Source: Candidatus Aenigmatarchaeota archaeon
GTDB taxonomy: Archaea > Aenigmatarchaeota > Aenigmatarchaeia > Aenigmatarchaeales > JACQIB01
Assembly: GCA_016198755.1 (NCBI GenBank)
Contig: JACQIB010000001.1
Span: forward strand, 96,001-160,000
Direction of reading: 5' to 3'
DNA: 64,000 nucleotides
The notes beneath the pieces are model-generated. The model did no database searches and was not told the origin of the DNA. It saw nothing but the letters and a program-made list of their open reading frames with translations. The translations under genes were made by a program, and so were the position numbers. Below are positions 1,343-23,507 of this stretch, in pieces (position 1 is the stretch's first letter; the number at the start of each line of letters is the position of its first letter).

Positions 1343-2038
1343 TTACTTCCAATATCCACTGGTCTTCGGAGATTTTTTCAGAACCTTTATCCTTATAGCA
1401 TTTGCAATATAGAACTCTAATGCTGTTTTTGCAAACCCCTGTTGGTACCTGCGGGAGGAAACAGGCATGCACATTTTTGGCAGAAACTTTATTTTTCCAA
1501 GTTTCCTTAATCTTGTTCCAAGCTCAAAATCTTCTAGTATATTAACATTTTCATCAAACCCACCAACAGCTTTCAAAGCTGTGCGCAGCACAGCAAGGTT
1601 TCCTGTACATAAGCAGGGGTAGCGCAATTTAGCAGAAACCCTGAGAAAATAATGTCCCCATATCTTCAGGTTTAATTTTGCTCTCTTTCCCCCATCATAC
1701 GGAACCAAAGGACCAAAAACAGCTATATTCTTTCCAATCCCTCCGAGTATTGTTTCCACCCAGTCCCTATATGGTATTGTATCAGCATCACAAAATGCAA
1801 TTATTTTCCCCCCAGCACTTTTCCAGCCCAGATTCCTTGCCTCAGAAATACCTTTTCCATGGTCTAAAAAAACCTTGTCAGCAAGCTTTTCTGCAATTTT
1901 AAAAGTCTTGTCCTTCGAGTGTCCGTCCACAACAATAATTTCAGGTTTTATTGTCTGTTTTCTTAATGCTTCCAGACACTTTCCAATATACTTTTCCTCA
2001 TTCTTTGAGCAGACAATAACCGAAACCAGCATAACCAT
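1343..2038 (-). CDS. Glycosyltransferase family 2
   Basis: VSVIV..NEEKYI, VVDGHSKD, FCDAD, GGFDE..ED motifs; start estimated. Confidence 0.9.
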   Translation of the reverse strand: MVMLVSVIVCSKNEEKYIGKCLEALRKQTIKPEIIVVDGHSKDKTFKIAEKLADKVFLDHGKGISEARNLGWKSAGGKIIAFCDADTIPYRDWVETILGGIGKNIAVFGPLVPYDGGKRAKLNLKIWGHYFLRVSAKLRYPCLCTGNLAVLRTALKAVGGFDENVNILEDFELGTRLRKLGKIKFLPKMCMPVSSRRYQQGFAKTALEFYIANAIRIKVLKKSPKTSGYWK

Positions 2039-2084
2039 ACTTATTTGCCCCCCTTTTTTAAAGCTGCAGAACATACTGAAATAT

Positions 2085-2161
2085 GCCTCGGTGGCTCAGC
2101 TCGGTAGAGCGGCGCACTTGTAATGCGCAAGTCGGGGGTTCAAATCCCTCCCGAGGCTCCA
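2085..2161 (+). tRNA. tRNA-Thr(TGT), no intron
   Basis: Cloverleaf GCCTCGG/CCGAGGC, anticodon loop CTTGTAA, encoded CCA. Confidence 0.95.
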
Positions 2162-2246
2162 TTCCCTCTCCACGTTAAAATATAACAGTGTTATATTATT
2201 GGTTCTGCAAAACCTTTAAAAGTTAGTTTAACATAACAATTCTCCT

Positions 2247-3317
2247 ATGGAACTGCCATTGGTTACAGTTGTAATCCCAGCAAGGAACGAGGAAAAAACA
2301 ATAGGCAACTGTTTAAAGAGTATACTGGAAGCAGACTATCCGAAAGAAAAGATGGAAGTTATAGTAGCAGTAGACGGCTGCACAGACAAAACAGAAGAAA
2401 TTGTGCGTTCTTTCAAAAATGTGAATGTGGTTGCTGGAGAGCCCAAAACTTCAAAAGCAGCAGCCCTGAATTCAGCCTGGCCCTCTGCAAAGGGTGAAAT
2501 AGTTGCAATTTTTGATTCTGATTGCATCGTAACAAAAGATTGTATAAGAGAAGCTGTAAAGCACTTTTCCAACCCAGATATAAATGCCGTTTCCGGCCCA
2601 AGCCTTTCCTACAATGAAAGAGGCAGCCTGATGTCAAAAGCCCTTTCCCTAGAAACAACTTTCATCTCCTATTATGAGTATTTCCTGAACAAGCATGGTG
2701 CTGACATAATTACAGCAGGAAATAACATGTTTTTCAGGAAAAGTATTCTAAAGGAAGTTGGTGGCTTTGACGAGGAGGTTATAGTAGAGGACCTTGCAAT
2801 ATCCATAGCAATAAAGCGCAAATCCCCTAAAAAACAGTGCAGCATTTTCGAGCCCAAATCTGTTGTGTACCATGAGGAACCTCCAAATTTCAATTCTTTT
2901 ATCCGCCAGCGCAGGCGCTGGACACGTGGAGCAGTACAGGCCCACAATAAATATGAGAAATCTGCCTCAATGAAATCCTTCCTGTCAGATGCGATGCACG
3001 GAACCTATTTCTATTTTCCTCCATTTACCTTCATTATAACAGCTTTAACAGCCCTTTTCCTCTATCTCTCCCTTCCCCTCCTCTACCTCTCCCCCCTCTA
3101 TATGCTTTTTATTTTTGTTTCGGCTCTCTTTATTCAGAGCCTCCGTTTTTTCAAACAATCCCTAACAAACATAGCTTACTTCCCAATATGGTTTTTCCTT
3201 AGCAACTTACAGGCTCTGTTAATACCCCTTTCAATTTTAGAAGAGTTAATGGGCAAGCAGAGCATATGGTACAGGCCAGATAGGGCAGGCCTCTCAACTC
3301 CCTTACCAACTATTTAA
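2247..3317 (+). CDS. Processive GT2 glycosyltransferase with C-terminal TM helices
   Basis: D,D,D and QRRRW motifs (DSD, VED, RQRRRW). Confidence 0.9.
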   Translation: MELPLVTVVIPARNEEKTIGNCLKSILEADYPKEKMEVIVAVDGCTDKTEEIVRSFKNVNVVAGEPKTSKAAALNSAWPSAKGEIVAIFDSDCIVTKDCIREAVKHFSNPDINAVSGPSLSYNERGSLMSKALSLETTFISYYEYFLNKHGADIITAGNNMFFRKSILKEVGGFDEEVIVEDLAISIAIKRKSPKKQCSIFEPKSVVYHEEPPNFNSFIRQRRRWTRGAVQAHNKYEKSASMKSFLSDAMHGTYFYFPPFTFIITALTALFLYLSLPLLYLSPLYMLFIFVSALFIQSLRFFKQSLTNIAYFPIWFFLSNLQALLIPLSILEELMGKQSIWYRPDRAGLSTPLPTI

Positions 3318-3341
3318 ACCTCCCAACCAATTCTTATTTAC

Positions 3342-3559
3342 GGGGTCGTGGTCTAGCCTGGTATGACAGCAGTCTCCAAGTCAGAACCTTGACGGTTCCG
3401 ACACCTCCCCAAACTTGGAGAGTCGAGCAAAAGCGATGAGATAACTGCCTGCGGGTGTTCAAAGCGCAAGAAGGGGAGACCCCTTCTTACCGCCCTATTA
3501 ACCCCCTTGGTTAGCGGTAAGGGAAAGTTCTCCCCGTGAGAATCACCCCGACCCCACCA
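3342..3559 (+). tRNA. tRNA-Trp(CCA) with introns at 37/38 (3380-3442, 63 nt) and 59/60 (3464-3542, 79 nt)
   Basis: Removing both gives a normal cloverleaf with T-arm GGGTG-TTCAAAT-CACCC; BHB-like motifs at both junctions. Confidence 0.9.
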
Positions 3560-4250
3560 CTCCCTCCTTACCAAAAACAATCTCTATATCTCCTTTGGCT
3601 CTTTCAGCTTCCAAAAGGCTATTAAACAAAGTCCTACACCTGTTCCCTGTATTGTTCAATAAACCCAACTCTAGTAAAGAATCTCCCATCTTTTCTGGAT
3701 CCAGAGCCTGCTTCAAACTGGTTCCCCCAAGTTTAGCATCTACTGCTAACATGCCGTGTACCGTTTCTCCCCTTCTCTCCACAGGTTCTCCATATTTTTT
3801 GTATAGTATATCAAAAACCTTTCCTCCGGTCATGCTCAAAGAAGCATACCAAGCACCTGTTTCCAAGACAACTTCGCTGAAATCTATAAGTTCTTTCCAA
3901 TCTTGCCGCGGACTTATCTTGTTCGCATCAAGCAGTTTACAAGTCAAAATCCAAAAATGTGGGGAGTTCAACAGCTGTATGTAGTGGGCTACCTCATGCG
4001 CTGCAGTGCCCCTCCATACTTCAGGATCCAAATCAAAAGTTATACCCTCAACTCGTAACGCCTTATAATCAGTTCTTGCAGAAAATCTAACCCCTCCCCC
4101 TGGCTCCCCATCAACTCCATACGCAGCCATATCAGCTCTCACAAGATTCCTATCAATATACCTAGGCTCAGGAGCATTCTGTCTTCTACAGTATTCTTTC
4201 ATCCTTTCCCAAGACTCCCTTAAAACCTGTTGCGGAGTTTCTTTTTCCAT
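3543..4250 (-). CDS. Hypothetical protein with HEXXH zinc-metallopeptidase-like motif
   Basis: 235-aa ORF containing AAHEVAH. Confidence 0.6.
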   Translation of the reverse strand: MEKETPQQVLRESWERMKEYCRRQNAPEPRYIDRNLVRADMAAYGVDGEPGGGVRFSARTDYKALRVEGITFDLDPEVWRGTAAHEVAHYIQLLNSPHFWILTCKLLDANKISPRQDWKELIDFSEVVLETGAWYASLSMTGGKVFDILYKKYGEPVERRGETVHGMLAVDAKLGGTSLKQALDPEKMGDSLLELGLLNNTGNRCRTLFNSLLEAERAKGDIEIVFGKEGVVGSG

Positions 4251-20428: not shown

Positions 20429-21370
20429 ATGGTTTACTTAGAAAATATCGAAAGGGGAGGCAAGACCTATTACTATATTACTAAGAATATTAGAGTCGGT
20501 GATAAAAAATGGAAGAAAATAAGAAAGTATATAGGCAATAAGCCTCCCTCAAAGGAACAGACAAAAAAAGCGGTTGGAGAGATTGAAAAAGAGGCGTTAA
20601 AAAAAGGCTTCATGAAGCCGGCTTCTAAATATGTTTATTTGAGCAACGAGGAAGCAGAGAAGCTGCAGGATTTGAAAGAGGTTTTTAACAAATGGTACGG
20701 AAAACTGAGTGCCATAGAGATAAAAAAATATGAAGATGACTTTGTTGTAAGATTTACGTATAACTCAAATGCTATTGAAGGAAACCGTTTAAGCCTTCGT
20801 GAAACAAGCATGATTTTAACAGAGAACATAATACCTGCTGGTGCCACTCCCAATGATTACAATGAAGCCATAAACTCAAAGGATTGTTACGAATTCATGA
20901 AAGTATATAGTGGAGAGTTTAATCAGAAATTTTTACTGAAAATCCACGAATTGCTTACAAAGAACACTAACTGCAAAATTATAGGCAATTATAGGGATCA
21001 TGAAGTCAGGATTTCCGGCTCTGACTGGGTTCCTCCTGCTCATGAAAAGATTAGAGAAGAGATGAGAAAAGTTTTCCAGTGGTACTATTTTGCCAGAAAG
21101 AAACTGCATCCTGCTGAATTGGGCGCTATTTTGCACAATAAATTAGTAAGAATCCACCCATTTGCTGATGGTAATGGCAGAACATCAAGAGTTATAATGA
21201 ACTGGATACTGATGAAGAATAAATTTCCAGTGTTTTATGTAGAACTACGAGATAAAATCAAATATTATGAAGCTGTTGAAGAAGGAGATAAAGGCAATGA
21301 CAAAGCAATAGTACATTATATTGCAAAAGTGCTGATGGAACAGTATACGTTTAAGTCAAATGGAAGATAG
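20429..21370 (+). CDS. Fic-family protein with inhibitory motif
   Basis: HPFADGNGRTSR active site; upstream SNAIEGN motif. Confidence 0.93.
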   Translation: MVYLENIERGGKTYYYITKNIRVGDKKWKKIRKYIGNKPPSKEQTKKAVGEIEKEALKKGFMKPASKYVYLSNEEAEKLQDLKEVFNKWYGKLSAIEIKKYEDDFVVRFTYNSNAIEGNRLSLRETSMILTENIIPAGATPNDYNEAINSKDCYEFMKVYSGEFNQKFLLKIHELLTKNTNCKIIGNYRDHEVRISGSDWVPPAHEKIREEMRKVFQWYYFARKKLHPAELGAILHNKLVRIHPFADGNGRTSRVIMNWILMKNKFPVFYVELRDKIKYYEAVEEGDKGNDKAIVHYIAKVLMEQYTFKSNGR

Positions 21371-21572
21371 TTCAGCGAGAAAAATGAAATCACCCACAAA
21401 AATACGGCATTATAGAATCAGGCCGCGCAGAAAGGCATAGAGACCATATGGGTTTATAAAGGCTGCTTTCCCAGTATAGGGAAGTGAGGTAGAGAGTAGT
21501 TTTGATTTCTATATGAGTTTCAAATATAACATACTTCTCGAATGAGAAAATTTAAAATAGGGGGTGAAAATA

Positions 21573-21719
21573 ATGCCATTCAATCGCGACTTTGGTCCAA
21601 GGGAAATGCACAAAGCAGTTTGTTCAGAGTGCAAGAAGGATACTGAGGTTCCTTTCAAGCCATCTGGTGACAGACCTGTTTATTGCAAGGATTGTTTCCA
21701 GAAGCACAAGAAATTCTAA
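21573..21719 (+). CDS. CxxC-x17-CxxC zinc-binding protein (48 aa; not in ORF track)
   Basis: MHKAVCSECKKDTEVPFKPSGDRPVYCKDCF; GGGGTGA RBS. Confidence 0.88.
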   Translation: MPFNRDFGPREMHKAVCSECKKDTEVPFKPSGDRPVYCKDCFQKHKKF

Positions 21720-21819
21720 TTCCACATCAGGAGTTTGAATTTAACAATCCATTTTCATGGGCTTTAGTTTTTATATGCCCAGCCAATTAATTAATATTAA
21801 GCAAAGTAATCATATTATT

Positions 21820-22815
21820 ATGATTAACATTGATTTTTTGCCAGATTCACCCAAAATACCCTTCAAAAATTACCTTGAAGATATACAGATAAAAAGAAAG
21901 CGTGGGAGTGATTCTATAAGATTTTATAATGTAAGAGATTATTTTTTAAATCTTATAAATAAGAGCGGAATAAAAAGAAGAAAAATATACGAAATGCTAG
22001 ATGTAAATAGGACTACATTCAATAATTGGATAGGTAAATCTAAAAAAGATGTCGGCATACCTATACAATATGCTCTAACATTGCTACAAATGTTTGGTAT
22101 GGGAAAGGATGATATATTATTTAAAAATGTTAATATTTACTACGGTTGTACAAATTCTAATAAATATAAATTGCCAACGGATATGACGCCTAAGCTAGCC
22201 TATCTAATAGGACAAATAATGGGTGACGGCCACTTATCAAATCCAAAAGATCTTATATCAAACGGATCTTTATATAATGCAGAGATAAGAATTACGAAGG
22301 GTGAAATAAAACAACTCAGATTGTTGACATCTATATTTTATGATATTTTTCATTATAAACCACCTATTTTCAGGGAAAAATCGTTTTATAGACTTGTAGC
22401 GCGATCAAAAGTTATTCACAGATTTTTGCATATCGTATGCGCCATACCAAGCGGTAATAAGAAAAACAAAACCTATATACCAGATATGATAATTAAAAAA
22501 GATGATTTTATAAAATGTTTTATTGGAGGATTTTTTGATTCTGATGGTTGCATAGTAGTTAAAAATAAAAATATTCGTGTGATTTCAATGAAACAGCATA
22601 ATATAAAAATCCTTCTCGATATCAAACATCAGCTTAAAAAATTTGGTATAAATATATCTGGCATATACAAAGATAGAGGAGTAAGAAACGGAACATCTAC
22701 ACTAAATTATGTTCTCAACATAGGTAGAGATGAAGAAAAACAAAAGTTTATAAAGATCATACCGTCTCTAAAGGTTATGGAGGTGTCGCGATTATATGGA
22801 AAATTTAGCATCTAA
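21820..22815 (+). CDS. Free-standing double-motif LAGLIDADG homing endonuclease with N-terminal HTH
   Basis: LAYLIGQIMGDG and FIGGFFDSDG motifs; HTH-like IYEMLDVNRTTFNNW; visibly AT-rich; ORF opens at 21757. Confidence 0.85.
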   Translation: MINIDFLPDSPKIPFKNYLEDIQIKRKRGSDSIRFYNVRDYFLNLINKSGIKRRKIYEMLDVNRTTFNNWIGKSKKDVGIPIQYALTLLQMFGMGKDDILFKNVNIYYGCTNSNKYKLPTDMTPKLAYLIGQIMGDGHLSNPKDLISNGSLYNAEIRITKGEIKQLRLLTSIFYDIFHYKPPIFREKSFYRLVARSKVIHRFLHIVCAIPSGNKKNKTYIPDMIIKKDDFIKCFIGGFFDSDGCIVVKNKNIRVISMKQHNIKILLDIKHQLKKFGINISGIYKDRGVRNGTSTLNYVLNIGRDEEKQKFIKIIPSLKVMEVSRLYGKFSI

Positions 22816-23507
22816 AGGTATACACATAGCTATCATCCCGGACGGAAAATAAGGCCGGAAACCGGAGATGGGCTGAGAAAAGGGGGAAGCCCCGCTGGTG
22901 GGGCCATATACATGGGGCAAAGAAGCTGGAAGATGTATCTTCATGGTGTGCAGATCACCCTGAAATAAAAACAGTTTCAGTTTATGCGCTTTCAACTGAA
23001 AATCTTGGCAGGGACTCCGCAGAATTGAATAAGCTTTGGACAATCTATAAAGATGAGTTTGGAAAACTGATGAAAGATAAAAGTACAAAGAAAAACCAGC
23101 TTCGGGTAAATATAGTAGGAAACACAAATGCATGGAGAGCTGATGTAAAACAGGCTGCAAAGGATGTAATGAACACAACAAAGCAGTATACTAACAGGGT
23201 TTTAAACATAATGCTTGCCTATGGCAGCAAGTTCGAGATTGTAGAGGCAGCCCGTTCAACCTTTAATAAAGGGGTTAAAATAGTGCCTTCCGTGGAAAAG
23301 CTTTTCAATCAATTCCTTTTGATTCCAGAGCCAGTTGATTTGGTTATAAGAACAGGAGGGCAGAGAAGGCTTTCCAACTTTTTGCTATGGCAGGCTGCTT
23401 ATGCAGAACTTTACTTTACAGATACTCTCTGGCCAGATTTATCAAGGAAAGAGTTTGAAAAAATCCTGCGCTGGTATACTGGCCAGAAGAAAAAGTTCGG
23501 CCTCTAA
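22796..23507 (+). CDS. uppS: cis-prenyltransferase UppS interrupted by a 13-nt putative intron (22848-22860)
   Basis: GGAGGTG RBS; removing 13 nt yields HIAIIPDGNRRWA..GH..YALSTEN..VDLVIRTGG.RLSNFLLWQAAYAE (232 aa). Confidence 0.88.

Follow-up and report, generated by a model that had tools for sequence, protein, structure and literature searches.

We analysed a 64,000-nucleotide (nt) stretch of an aenigmatarchaeal genome, referred to here as the window (contig JACQIB010000001.1 of Candidatus Aenigmatarchaeota archaeon, positions 96,001 to 160,000), in which a free-standing LAGLIDADG homing-endonuclease-type gene lies immediately upstream of uppS, a lipid-carrier synthase gene (cis-prenyltransferase) that is split near its 5' end by a 13-nt micro-intron of the bulge-helix-bulge (BHB) kind. 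The features of the locus are given in Table 1. The nuclease gene is flanked by a zinc-ribbon gene (21564-21719) on one side and by uppS on the other, and is outside any intron or intein. The uppS start codon (ATG) is at 22796 and the nuclease stop codon (TAA) at 22813-22815, so that the two genes overlap by 20 nt, and both the likely ribosome-binding site of uppS and its first codons are found within the nuclease gene. When placed by the BHB rule described below, the micro-intron starts at 22848, which is 32 nt past the nuclease stop. The free-standing position, the 20-nt overlap, the inclusion of the ribosome-binding site and first codons, and the 32-nt spacing had been described in a first-pass annotation of the window and were borne out. 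The same annotation had gone on to suggest that nuclease and intron form a collaborative-homing pair, a proposal that is weighed here against the corresponding loci of related genomes.

Table 1. Features of the nuclease-uppS locus, in coordinates of the window.
Feature	Position	Strand	Evidence
LAGLIDADG homing-endonuclease-type gene, free-standing	21757-22815	+	Open reading frame (ORF) of 352 amino acids (aa); Pfam; PDB profile match; four intact orthologues; GC content
Tentative N-terminal helical region resembling a helix-turn-helix (HTH), residues ~60-120	21934-22116	+	Pfam match below cut-off; AlphaFold2 (AF2) helices; conserved block (together weak support)
LAGLIDADG motif 1 (..LIGQIMGDGHL), bearing D157	22195-22236	+	Sequence; G156-D157-G158-H159 invariant in orthologues
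LAGLIDADG motif 2 (..FIGGFFDSDGCIVV), bearing D263	22519-22560	+	Sequence; F260-D261 and D263-G264 invariant; just upstream of the LAGLIDADG_3 match
GGAGGTG, likely uppS ribosome-binding site, within the nuclease gene and 10 nt ahead of the ATG	22779-22785	+	Sequence; identical heptamer at the same place in G005
uppS exon 1 (MENLASKGIHIAIIPDG and then the first base of the Asn codon)	22796-22847	+	H-I-A-I-I-P-D-G agrees with intact relatives
BHB motif	22838-22865	+	Outer helix 22838-41/22862-65; central helix 22842-45/22855-58; bulges 22846-48 and 22859-61
BHB micro-intron, 13 nt	22848-22860	+	Removal restores the ORF; BHB geometry; shuffle control; comparative interruptions
uppS exon 2, cis-prenyltransferase	22861-23507	+	Pfam Prenyltransf, E 1.9e-41, on the distal part

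The description of the upstream gene as AT-rich and carrying two LAGLIDADG motifs, each with its aspartate, was likewise confirmed. Its GC content is 28.9%, compared with 41.7% for uppS and 40.5% for the window, and residues 252-335 of the product match Pfam LAGLIDADG_3 (E 4.9e-12; bit score 46.4, cut-off 22.5). Four intact orthologues were recovered from other genomes, which are 42-50% identical to the window protein (42-59% among all five) and match the same Pfam family at 1e-15 to 1e-19. A profile built from the window protein and these four orthologues was compared with the PDB and matched PI-PfuI (1dq3) over both motifs (E 5.6e-6), with weaker matches to I-Tsp061I (7e-4) and I-DmoI (0.017), and in the profile alignments motifs 1 and 2 are in register with PI-PfuI and I-DmoI. 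LAGLIDADG helices each terminate in an acidic metal-binding residue (PMC3384342), and the aligned D157 and D263, the acidic ends of the two motifs, are kept in all five orthologues. In the AF2 model the C-terminal domain is confident, and the top Foldseek matches are LAGLIDADG enzymes throughout, at TM values of only 0.2-0.4. The HTH that had also been assigned to this protein stands less firmly: AF2 places helices at residues 60-122 (pLDDT 67-87), and W91 and the block D98-P102 are invariant in the orthologue alignment, while the match to HTH_23 at residues 68-92 (E 0.052) is below the Pfam cut-off. Because residues 1-21 have no counterpart in the aligned orthologues, the real start of the protein may be the ATG at 21820.

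In uppS, the reading frame of exon 1 meets a stop after MENLASKGIHIAIIPDG, and the remainder of the gene is in another frame. Deletion of 22848-22860 gives the sequence ..IIPDGNRRWA.. within an ORF of 232 aa, with the interruption falling between the DG|N codons. Owing to repeated letters there are seven equivalent placements of the 13 nt (first base 22844 to 22850), and they are bordered by a 6-nt direct repeat. The BHB motif predicted here is of a relaxed form, with a 4-bp outer helix, a central helix of three pairs out of four plus one A.G, a 6-nt loop and no inner helix, and the predicted cuts fall after the second base of each 3-nt bulge. The minimum free energy fold shows the same helices, with a z-score of -1.18 that is not significant when taken alone, and the case for the micro-intron rests on comparison across genomes. 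The enzymes that would be needed for its removal are encoded in the window genome (G000), where EndA is represented by two adjacent PF01974 genes (C1:37787-38576) and RtcB by a PF01139 match at 1e-141. The RtcB match (G000:C5:42797-45628) is in two pieces about 1.4 kb apart within a single frame of 1010 aa, as for intein-bearing RtcB.

For the comparison, 70 uppS loci were read from two orders and some further families, and 19 were found to be interrupted and 51 intact. Among relatives of the window genome, the protein encoded by uppS exon 2 had matches in 56 of 61 genomes, and of the 30 loci read four were interrupted (G000, G005, G023 and G026). The same four were flagged across the whole of the window's own order (42 genomes, 41 with uppS), using an intact UppS query and flagging matches that started late or contained a stop. 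The class set comprised 371 genomes, 314 of them with uppS, and gave 346 matches, of which 150 were listed; ten were flagged and all ten proved to be interrupted on reading. Six interrupted genes were added in this way among the matches listed (G269, G271, G272, G132, G133 and G296), and uppS was intact on reading in G317, G270 and G048. Searches based on the nuclease led to three further loci, L052 (a metagenome contig), L054 (G371) and L055 (G372), and uppS is interrupted in each of them. These three were found with an alignment of two nuclease sequences, whereas the window protein as a single query of genome and metagenome contigs had found no relative; the two-sequence alignment also gave the distant matches L056 and L057 at 28% identity. 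For the second order, to which G371 belongs, a sample of 61 genomes provided 30 loci for reading, of which seven are interrupted (G371, G408, G423, G426, G429, G399 and G389).

The interruptions occur at two sites, DG|N in 15 of the 19 genes and LI|PDG, 6 nt upstream, in the other four. They are 13-70 nt long, include multiples of three as well as other lengths, and contain in-frame stops in those that were translated. All 19 obey the same rule of a 4-bp helix between 3-nt bulges with cuts after the second bulge base. The central helix has all four pairs in 13 loci and three of four in the remaining six; after shuffling of the intron letters (n = 200), full pairing was seen in a mean of 0.99 loci (maximum 5) and three-of-four pairing in a mean of 6.5 (maximum 14). 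Compensatory pairs are present in this helix, with exon ACGG facing intron CCGT in some genes and exon ATGG facing intron CCAT in others. Since every one of the 19 interrupted genes fits the cut rule, the central helix covaries, EndA and RtcB are present, and a single uppS copy was found in G000, the micro-intron is held, on this comparative evidence, to be real, and it would be removed from the mRNA by splicing.

Some features of the wider uppS family were also recorded. The UppS proteins of the class divide into one group that is about 52-62% identical to that of the window and another at about 30-46%, with a distribution that is patchy even inside one genus, and several genomes have two uppS copies (G020, G040, G016 and G055). 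In G005 (L014/L002), ATC replaces the ATG that begins the MTDDV.. start of relatives, and there is no in-frame ATG, GTG or TTG upstream of the motif, reflecting either a near-cognate start or an error.

Genes for LAGLIDADG-type proteins upstream of uppS and on the same strand were sought with phmmer, using a LAGLIDADG panel against all ORFs of each locus, and with Pfam on 20 upstream ORFs. Such an ORF is found directly upstream at ten loci (G000, G005, L052, G371/L054, G372/L055, G023, G034, G026, G271 and G272), and uppS is interrupted in nine of them, the exception being G034. Put the other way, one of the 51 intact uppS genes has such a neighbour, and among the 60 loci that do not have one uppS is interrupted in ten. 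For the window's own type of nuclease the intron is alongside in 5/5 cases, three of which were located via the nuclease rather than via uppS. Within genera, both elements are present or both absent in each of the three contrasts available: G005 has both and G001 neither (UppS 73% identical), G023 has both and G040 neither (85%), and G026 has both, with neither in G028, G029 and G035 (76-82%). Co-occurrence across related genomes had been put forward as a check of the proposed pairing, and it holds in one direction. The coupling is one-sided, strong from nuclease gene to intron and weak from intron to nuclease gene (9/19).

The upstream proteins sort into about four types, between which phmmer finds weak links or none. 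Type 1 is that of the window (G000, G005, L052, L054 and L055) and is accompanied by an intron at DG|N. Type 2 (G023 and G034) is a weak assignment based on HTH_3 and LAGLIDADG-like motifs (hhalign E 0.034), and the G023 intron is at LI|PDG. Type 3, found in G026, aligns across both motifs (hhalign E 0.001) and has its intron at DG|N, and type 4 (G271 and G272) matches Pfam LAGLIDADG_3 at 7.3e-14, with introns at LI|PDG. The type-4 gene is a single ORF of 296 aa in G272 (L045) and is divided into two ORFs of 84 and 244 aa in G271 (L044), where the gene is probably decaying while the intron stays. At L052, L044 and L045, and at an aEF-2 locus described below (L097, in G147), the nuclease ORF shares the reading frame of the host gene's exon 1 and stops within the micro-intron, so the spliced RNA could encode a nuclease-host fusion. 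The nuclease ORF of L054 traverses exon 1 out of frame and likewise terminates within the intron.

Several observations bear on the mobility of the nuclease gene. A profile search of the 371 class genomes found close orthologues in G000 and G005 only, and the nuclease was not found in 59 of 60 relatives of the window genome. Its GC content is lower than that of the flanks at four of four loci. G371 and G408 are similar on both sides of the insertion point (81% nucleotide identity in a purP-like neighbour, 80% in uppS), and in G408 the purP-like gene abuts uppS, whereas about 1.0 kb holding the nuclease gene alone intervenes in G371; uppS carries an intron in both, and the intron sequences differ. 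Between G000 and L054/L055 the nucleases are 46/42% identical and the UppS proteins 32/35%. The nuclease is thus more conserved than UppS between distant hosts, which is difficult to explain if the pair has been inherited by vertical descent alone. In these respects the nuclease gene behaves as a mobile insertion, and the best reading is that it was horizontally acquired, which would imply actual movement between genomes. The possibility that the IIPDG sequence of L054/L055 was imported along with the nuclease gene was considered and rejected, IIPDG being native throughout that order.

Further upstream in the window are a Fic-domain gene (20429-21370; PF02661, 3.1e-23) and the zinc-ribbon gene already mentioned, which specifies a small treble-clef zinc finger (PF23477, 3.4e-21). 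A PF23477 gene also stands in front of the nuclease gene in G026.

Next below the close orthologues in the profile search of the class come full-length matches (E 1e-26 to 1e-31) to paralogues located elsewhere. In G147 (L097; G147:C1, minus strand, oriented 1468-3843), an HTH-LAGLIDADG ORF (LAGLIDADG_3 at 1.6e-15) precedes the gene for aEF-2, reads in frame through aEF-2 exon 1 and stops within a 30-nt intron (oriented 2595-2624). This intron is a canonical BHB example, with four of four central pairs and helices of 10 bp (inner) and 3 bp (outer), and its removal gives a continuous ORF. It divides the codons of the GTP-binding P-loop, the G1 motif of EF-2. Five other paralogues (L096, L010, L095, L100 and L098) have 3' ends that overlap the 5' ends of tRNA genes, and these tRNA genes are 84-105 nt long, with anticodon-loop insertions of about 12-40 nt. 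At L102, an interrupted tRNA gene (124 nt) lies divergently upstream of the paralogue. In the uppS, aEF-2 and tRNA cases alike, the nuclease gene ends within about 0-50 nt of a BHB intron that falls in its neighbour's first conserved stretch, and such a layout is what a free-standing homing gene requires in order to be co-converted with its own cut site. The first-pass annotation had asked whether other free-standing LAGLIDADG genes abut interrupted genes; this is the case at aEF-2 and five tRNA genes, and no interruption was seen at tRNA-Ala, RFC-large, DUF763-like and PP-loop ATPase genes. In two genomes of different families (L094 in G023 and L099 in G123) the paralogue lies between the genes for the RFC small and large subunits, and no interruption was seen in either. 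The other free-standing LAGLIDADG genes of G000 (C3:224418 and C2:239448) had neither an RNA gene nor a clearly split gene beside them, in a reading that did not compare the neighbours with protein families.

On balance, we think it probable that the window's gene encodes a free-standing homing endonuclease targeting intron-less uppS, with the intron serving as immunity, in what would be a BHB/LAGLIDADG variant of collaborative homing. The recognition site of the nuclease would be, or would formerly have been, the intron-less ..IIPDGNRRW.. coding sequence of uppS, about 50 nt past the end of its own gene. In its own genome this target would be split by the 13-nt intron and the chromosome left uncut, while UppS would still be made, as the two-subunit EndA would excise the intron from the mRNA and RtcB rejoin the ends. 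On meeting an intron-less allele, the nuclease would cut it, and repair from the allele with both nuclease gene and intron would copy both parts. Alleles with the intron alone would be immune, and could be survivors of the loss of a nuclease gene or older, independent introns that the nuclease exploits. DNA cleavage, the position of the target and immunity are all predictions of this model.

A number of observations weigh against collaborative homing at uppS or limit the case for it. Ten of the 19 interrupted genes have no nuclease neighbour (G269, G132, G133, G296, G408, G423, G426, G429, G399 and G389), and in the second order the nuclease gene is beside one of seven; because of these ten loci, the uppS intron must be able to exist independently of the nuclease. 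In G034 a type-2 gene precedes an intact uppS, whose site and the spliced site of G023 disagree at about 7 of 22 positions. In G000 itself, a second and distantly related HTH-LAGLIDADG gene of 341 aa (C3 ~180836-181927; L104 1763-2854) overlaps an uninterrupted tRNA-Ala(CGC) gene by 7 nt, and this locus is a counter-example to any strict nuclease-intron rule. No interruption was found in the neighbouring gene at the paralogues that precede RFC-large (2 genomes), a DUF763-like gene (2 genomes) and a PP-loop ATPase gene. A search for co-conversion using 60-nt windows had a mixed outcome: nucleotide identity over the first 120 nt was 10-14 points down in two of three independent pairs with and without the nuclease gene, and the intron-sharing pair G371/G408 had no drop in identity near the junction. 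As to the enzyme, the positions aligned to K42/43 and K120 of I-DmoI, its conserved basic residues close to the active sites, are not basic (in a weak alignment, E 0.017), with invariant R178 and K279 nearby, and the AF2 model is poor overall (mean pLDDT 60.5), parts of the first LAGLIDADG domain being below 50. The counts themselves are drawn from related genomes and are not independent, the upstream sequence is shorter than 1 kb at six of the intact loci, which are weak negatives, and 196 of the 346 class matches were outside the reading.

Several of these points would be expected if the two elements were simply independent neighbours, that is, a selfish LAGLIDADG gene, active or decaying, with a target elsewhere (for example in the spacer or at the start of uppS), next to a micro-intron that is one of many in an intron-rich lineage, each having reached the conserved 5' block of uppS for reasons of its own. 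Introns that lack a nuclease gene, at more than half of the interrupted loci and at 6/7 of those in the second order, fit this explanation, as does the abundance of free-standing LAGLIDADG genes in these genomes, which often adjoin uninterrupted genes. We regard it as unlikely nonetheless: against it stand the interruption of uppS in nine of ten nuclease-adjacent loci, compared with 10/60 of the others, and the joint behaviour of the pair in all three within-genus contrasts, and coincidence is argued against because this strong, one-sided association recurs with about four unrelated nuclease lineages and at aEF-2. The 13-nt interruption might also be no intron at all, but an assembly error, a pseudogene lesion or a programmed frameshift site, with the nuclease gene incidental. 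The window's copy alone would allow this, given its relaxed motif with three of four central pairs and no inner helix, its modest fold z-score and the direct repeat that flanks it. Set against 19 independent assemblies interrupted at the same two sites by 13-70 nt that follow the BHB rule and covary, and against a genome with a sole uppS copy that encodes EndA and RtcB, this explanation is very improbable.

The protein could instead be a domesticated, non-cutting DNA- or RNA-binding protein, either a WhiA-like regulator of uppS or a splicing helper like the LAGLIDADG maturases of group I introns. Its ORF is intact in 5/5 orthologues at 42-59% identity, implying selection, its gene overlaps the uppS start and contains the ribosome-binding site, and Pfam LAGLIDADG_WhiA gives a sub-threshold match to the G147 paralogue. 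WhiA/DUF199 regulators likewise combine a LAGLIDADG fold with an HTH, but they have lost the acidic as well as the basic catalytic residues, with a C-terminal HTH and conservation across whole lineages (PMC3384342). Here both acidic residues are invariant, the HTH-like region is at the N-terminus, and the gene has a sporadic distribution, occurring in 2/371 class genomes as an insertion of foreign composition; most uppS genes, with or without an intron, have no such partner. Because the acidic residues are kept, the distribution is sporadic and the composition foreign, domestication of the WhiA kind is argued against, and we consider it improbable. The collaborative-homing pair of the first-pass annotation thus stands in part, favoured by the coupling in nine of ten loci, the three contrasts, the signs of a mobile insertion and the repetition at aEF-2, and weakened by the introns that occur alone, by G034 and by tRNA-Ala.

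LAGLIDADG enzymes of archaea are known from within rRNA BHB introns (I-DmoI and I-Tsp061I) and from inteins (PI-PfuI). The system described here shares with these the enzyme family, the kind of intron and the splicing machinery, but the gene is upstream of the entire host gene and outside the intron, whose length falls far below what would be needed to contain it, the host is protein-coding, and the nuclease has an additional N-terminal helical domain. Collaborative homing has been described for group I introns of phages with free-standing nucleases (PMC3984707, PMC6083498). In the system summarised in PMC3984707, a free-standing nuclease gene adjoins a gene with a short intron devoid of ORFs, as at uppS, and the proposed logic is also alike, in that the nuclease targets the position of intron insertion, carriers of the intron are protected by it, and both elements spread jointly. 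In those phages the intron is a self-splicing group I ribozyme and the nuclease is EndoVII-like or HNH, and both cleavage and immunity have been shown; here a 13-nt, protein-spliced BHB intron is paired with a LAGLIDADG protein in archaeal chromosomes, and cleavage and immunity are predicted. Because the intron is 13 nt long with BHB geometry and is not a group I intron, we class the uppS system as a variant of the phage systems already described rather than as one of them. In a further phage case, that of T4 mobE and I-TevIII, trans homing similarly allows a free-standing endonuclease to mobilise itself and neighbouring DNA including an intron, but with an HNH enzyme, a group I intron and other target relations (PMC2790892).

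The closest precedent for the intron is that of crenarchaeal cbf5; according to PMC2738675, BHB splicing had been confirmed for no other protein-coding gene of archaea. Both are short, ORF-less BHB introns in protein-coding hosts (16-44 bp in cbf5, too short to encode a nuclease, and 13-70 nt here), with patchy gain and loss and with cutting, predicted in the case of uppS, by a multi-subunit EndA. They differ in gene and phylum, and splicing has been established experimentally for cbf5 and is predicted for uppS; no associated nuclease is reported for cbf5 (PMC2738675). The first-pass annotation knew of no archaeal description of such a pairing, and a full-text literature search, with most subscription journals outside its coverage, found no paper that connects a BHB intron with a free-standing LAGLIDADG gene, and none describing an intron in uppS. 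Judged by analogy with the systems above, what would be new here is the logic of collaborative homing with a different intron chemistry, nuclease family and host domain.

Archaeal BHB introns are themselves devoid of ribozyme and reverse-splicing activity. For their gain and spread, above all for the rare ones in protein-coding genes, a coupled external nuclease gene offers a concrete mechanism at the DNA level. Two protein-coding hosts are added by the present comparison, uppS (in 19 genomes) and aEF-2. If collaborative homing does operate at uppS, then it is not confined to phage group I introns, and arose with another intron chemistry and another nuclease family in cellular archaea. A wider and distinctly more speculative possibility is that free-standing HTH-LAGLIDADG genes placed just 5' of conserved genes (uppS, aEF-2 and tRNA genes) generally drive the acquisition and spread of BHB introns among DPANN archaea. 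Any such nuclease would then cut its neighbour's first conserved motif where this lacks an intron, and short introns spliced by EndA would be selected as immunity elements and carried by co-conversion. Should this broader view be correct, it would account for the record intron loads of these lineages in tRNA, rRNA and mRNA, and would reveal a stage preceding the intron-encoded endonucleases of archaea.

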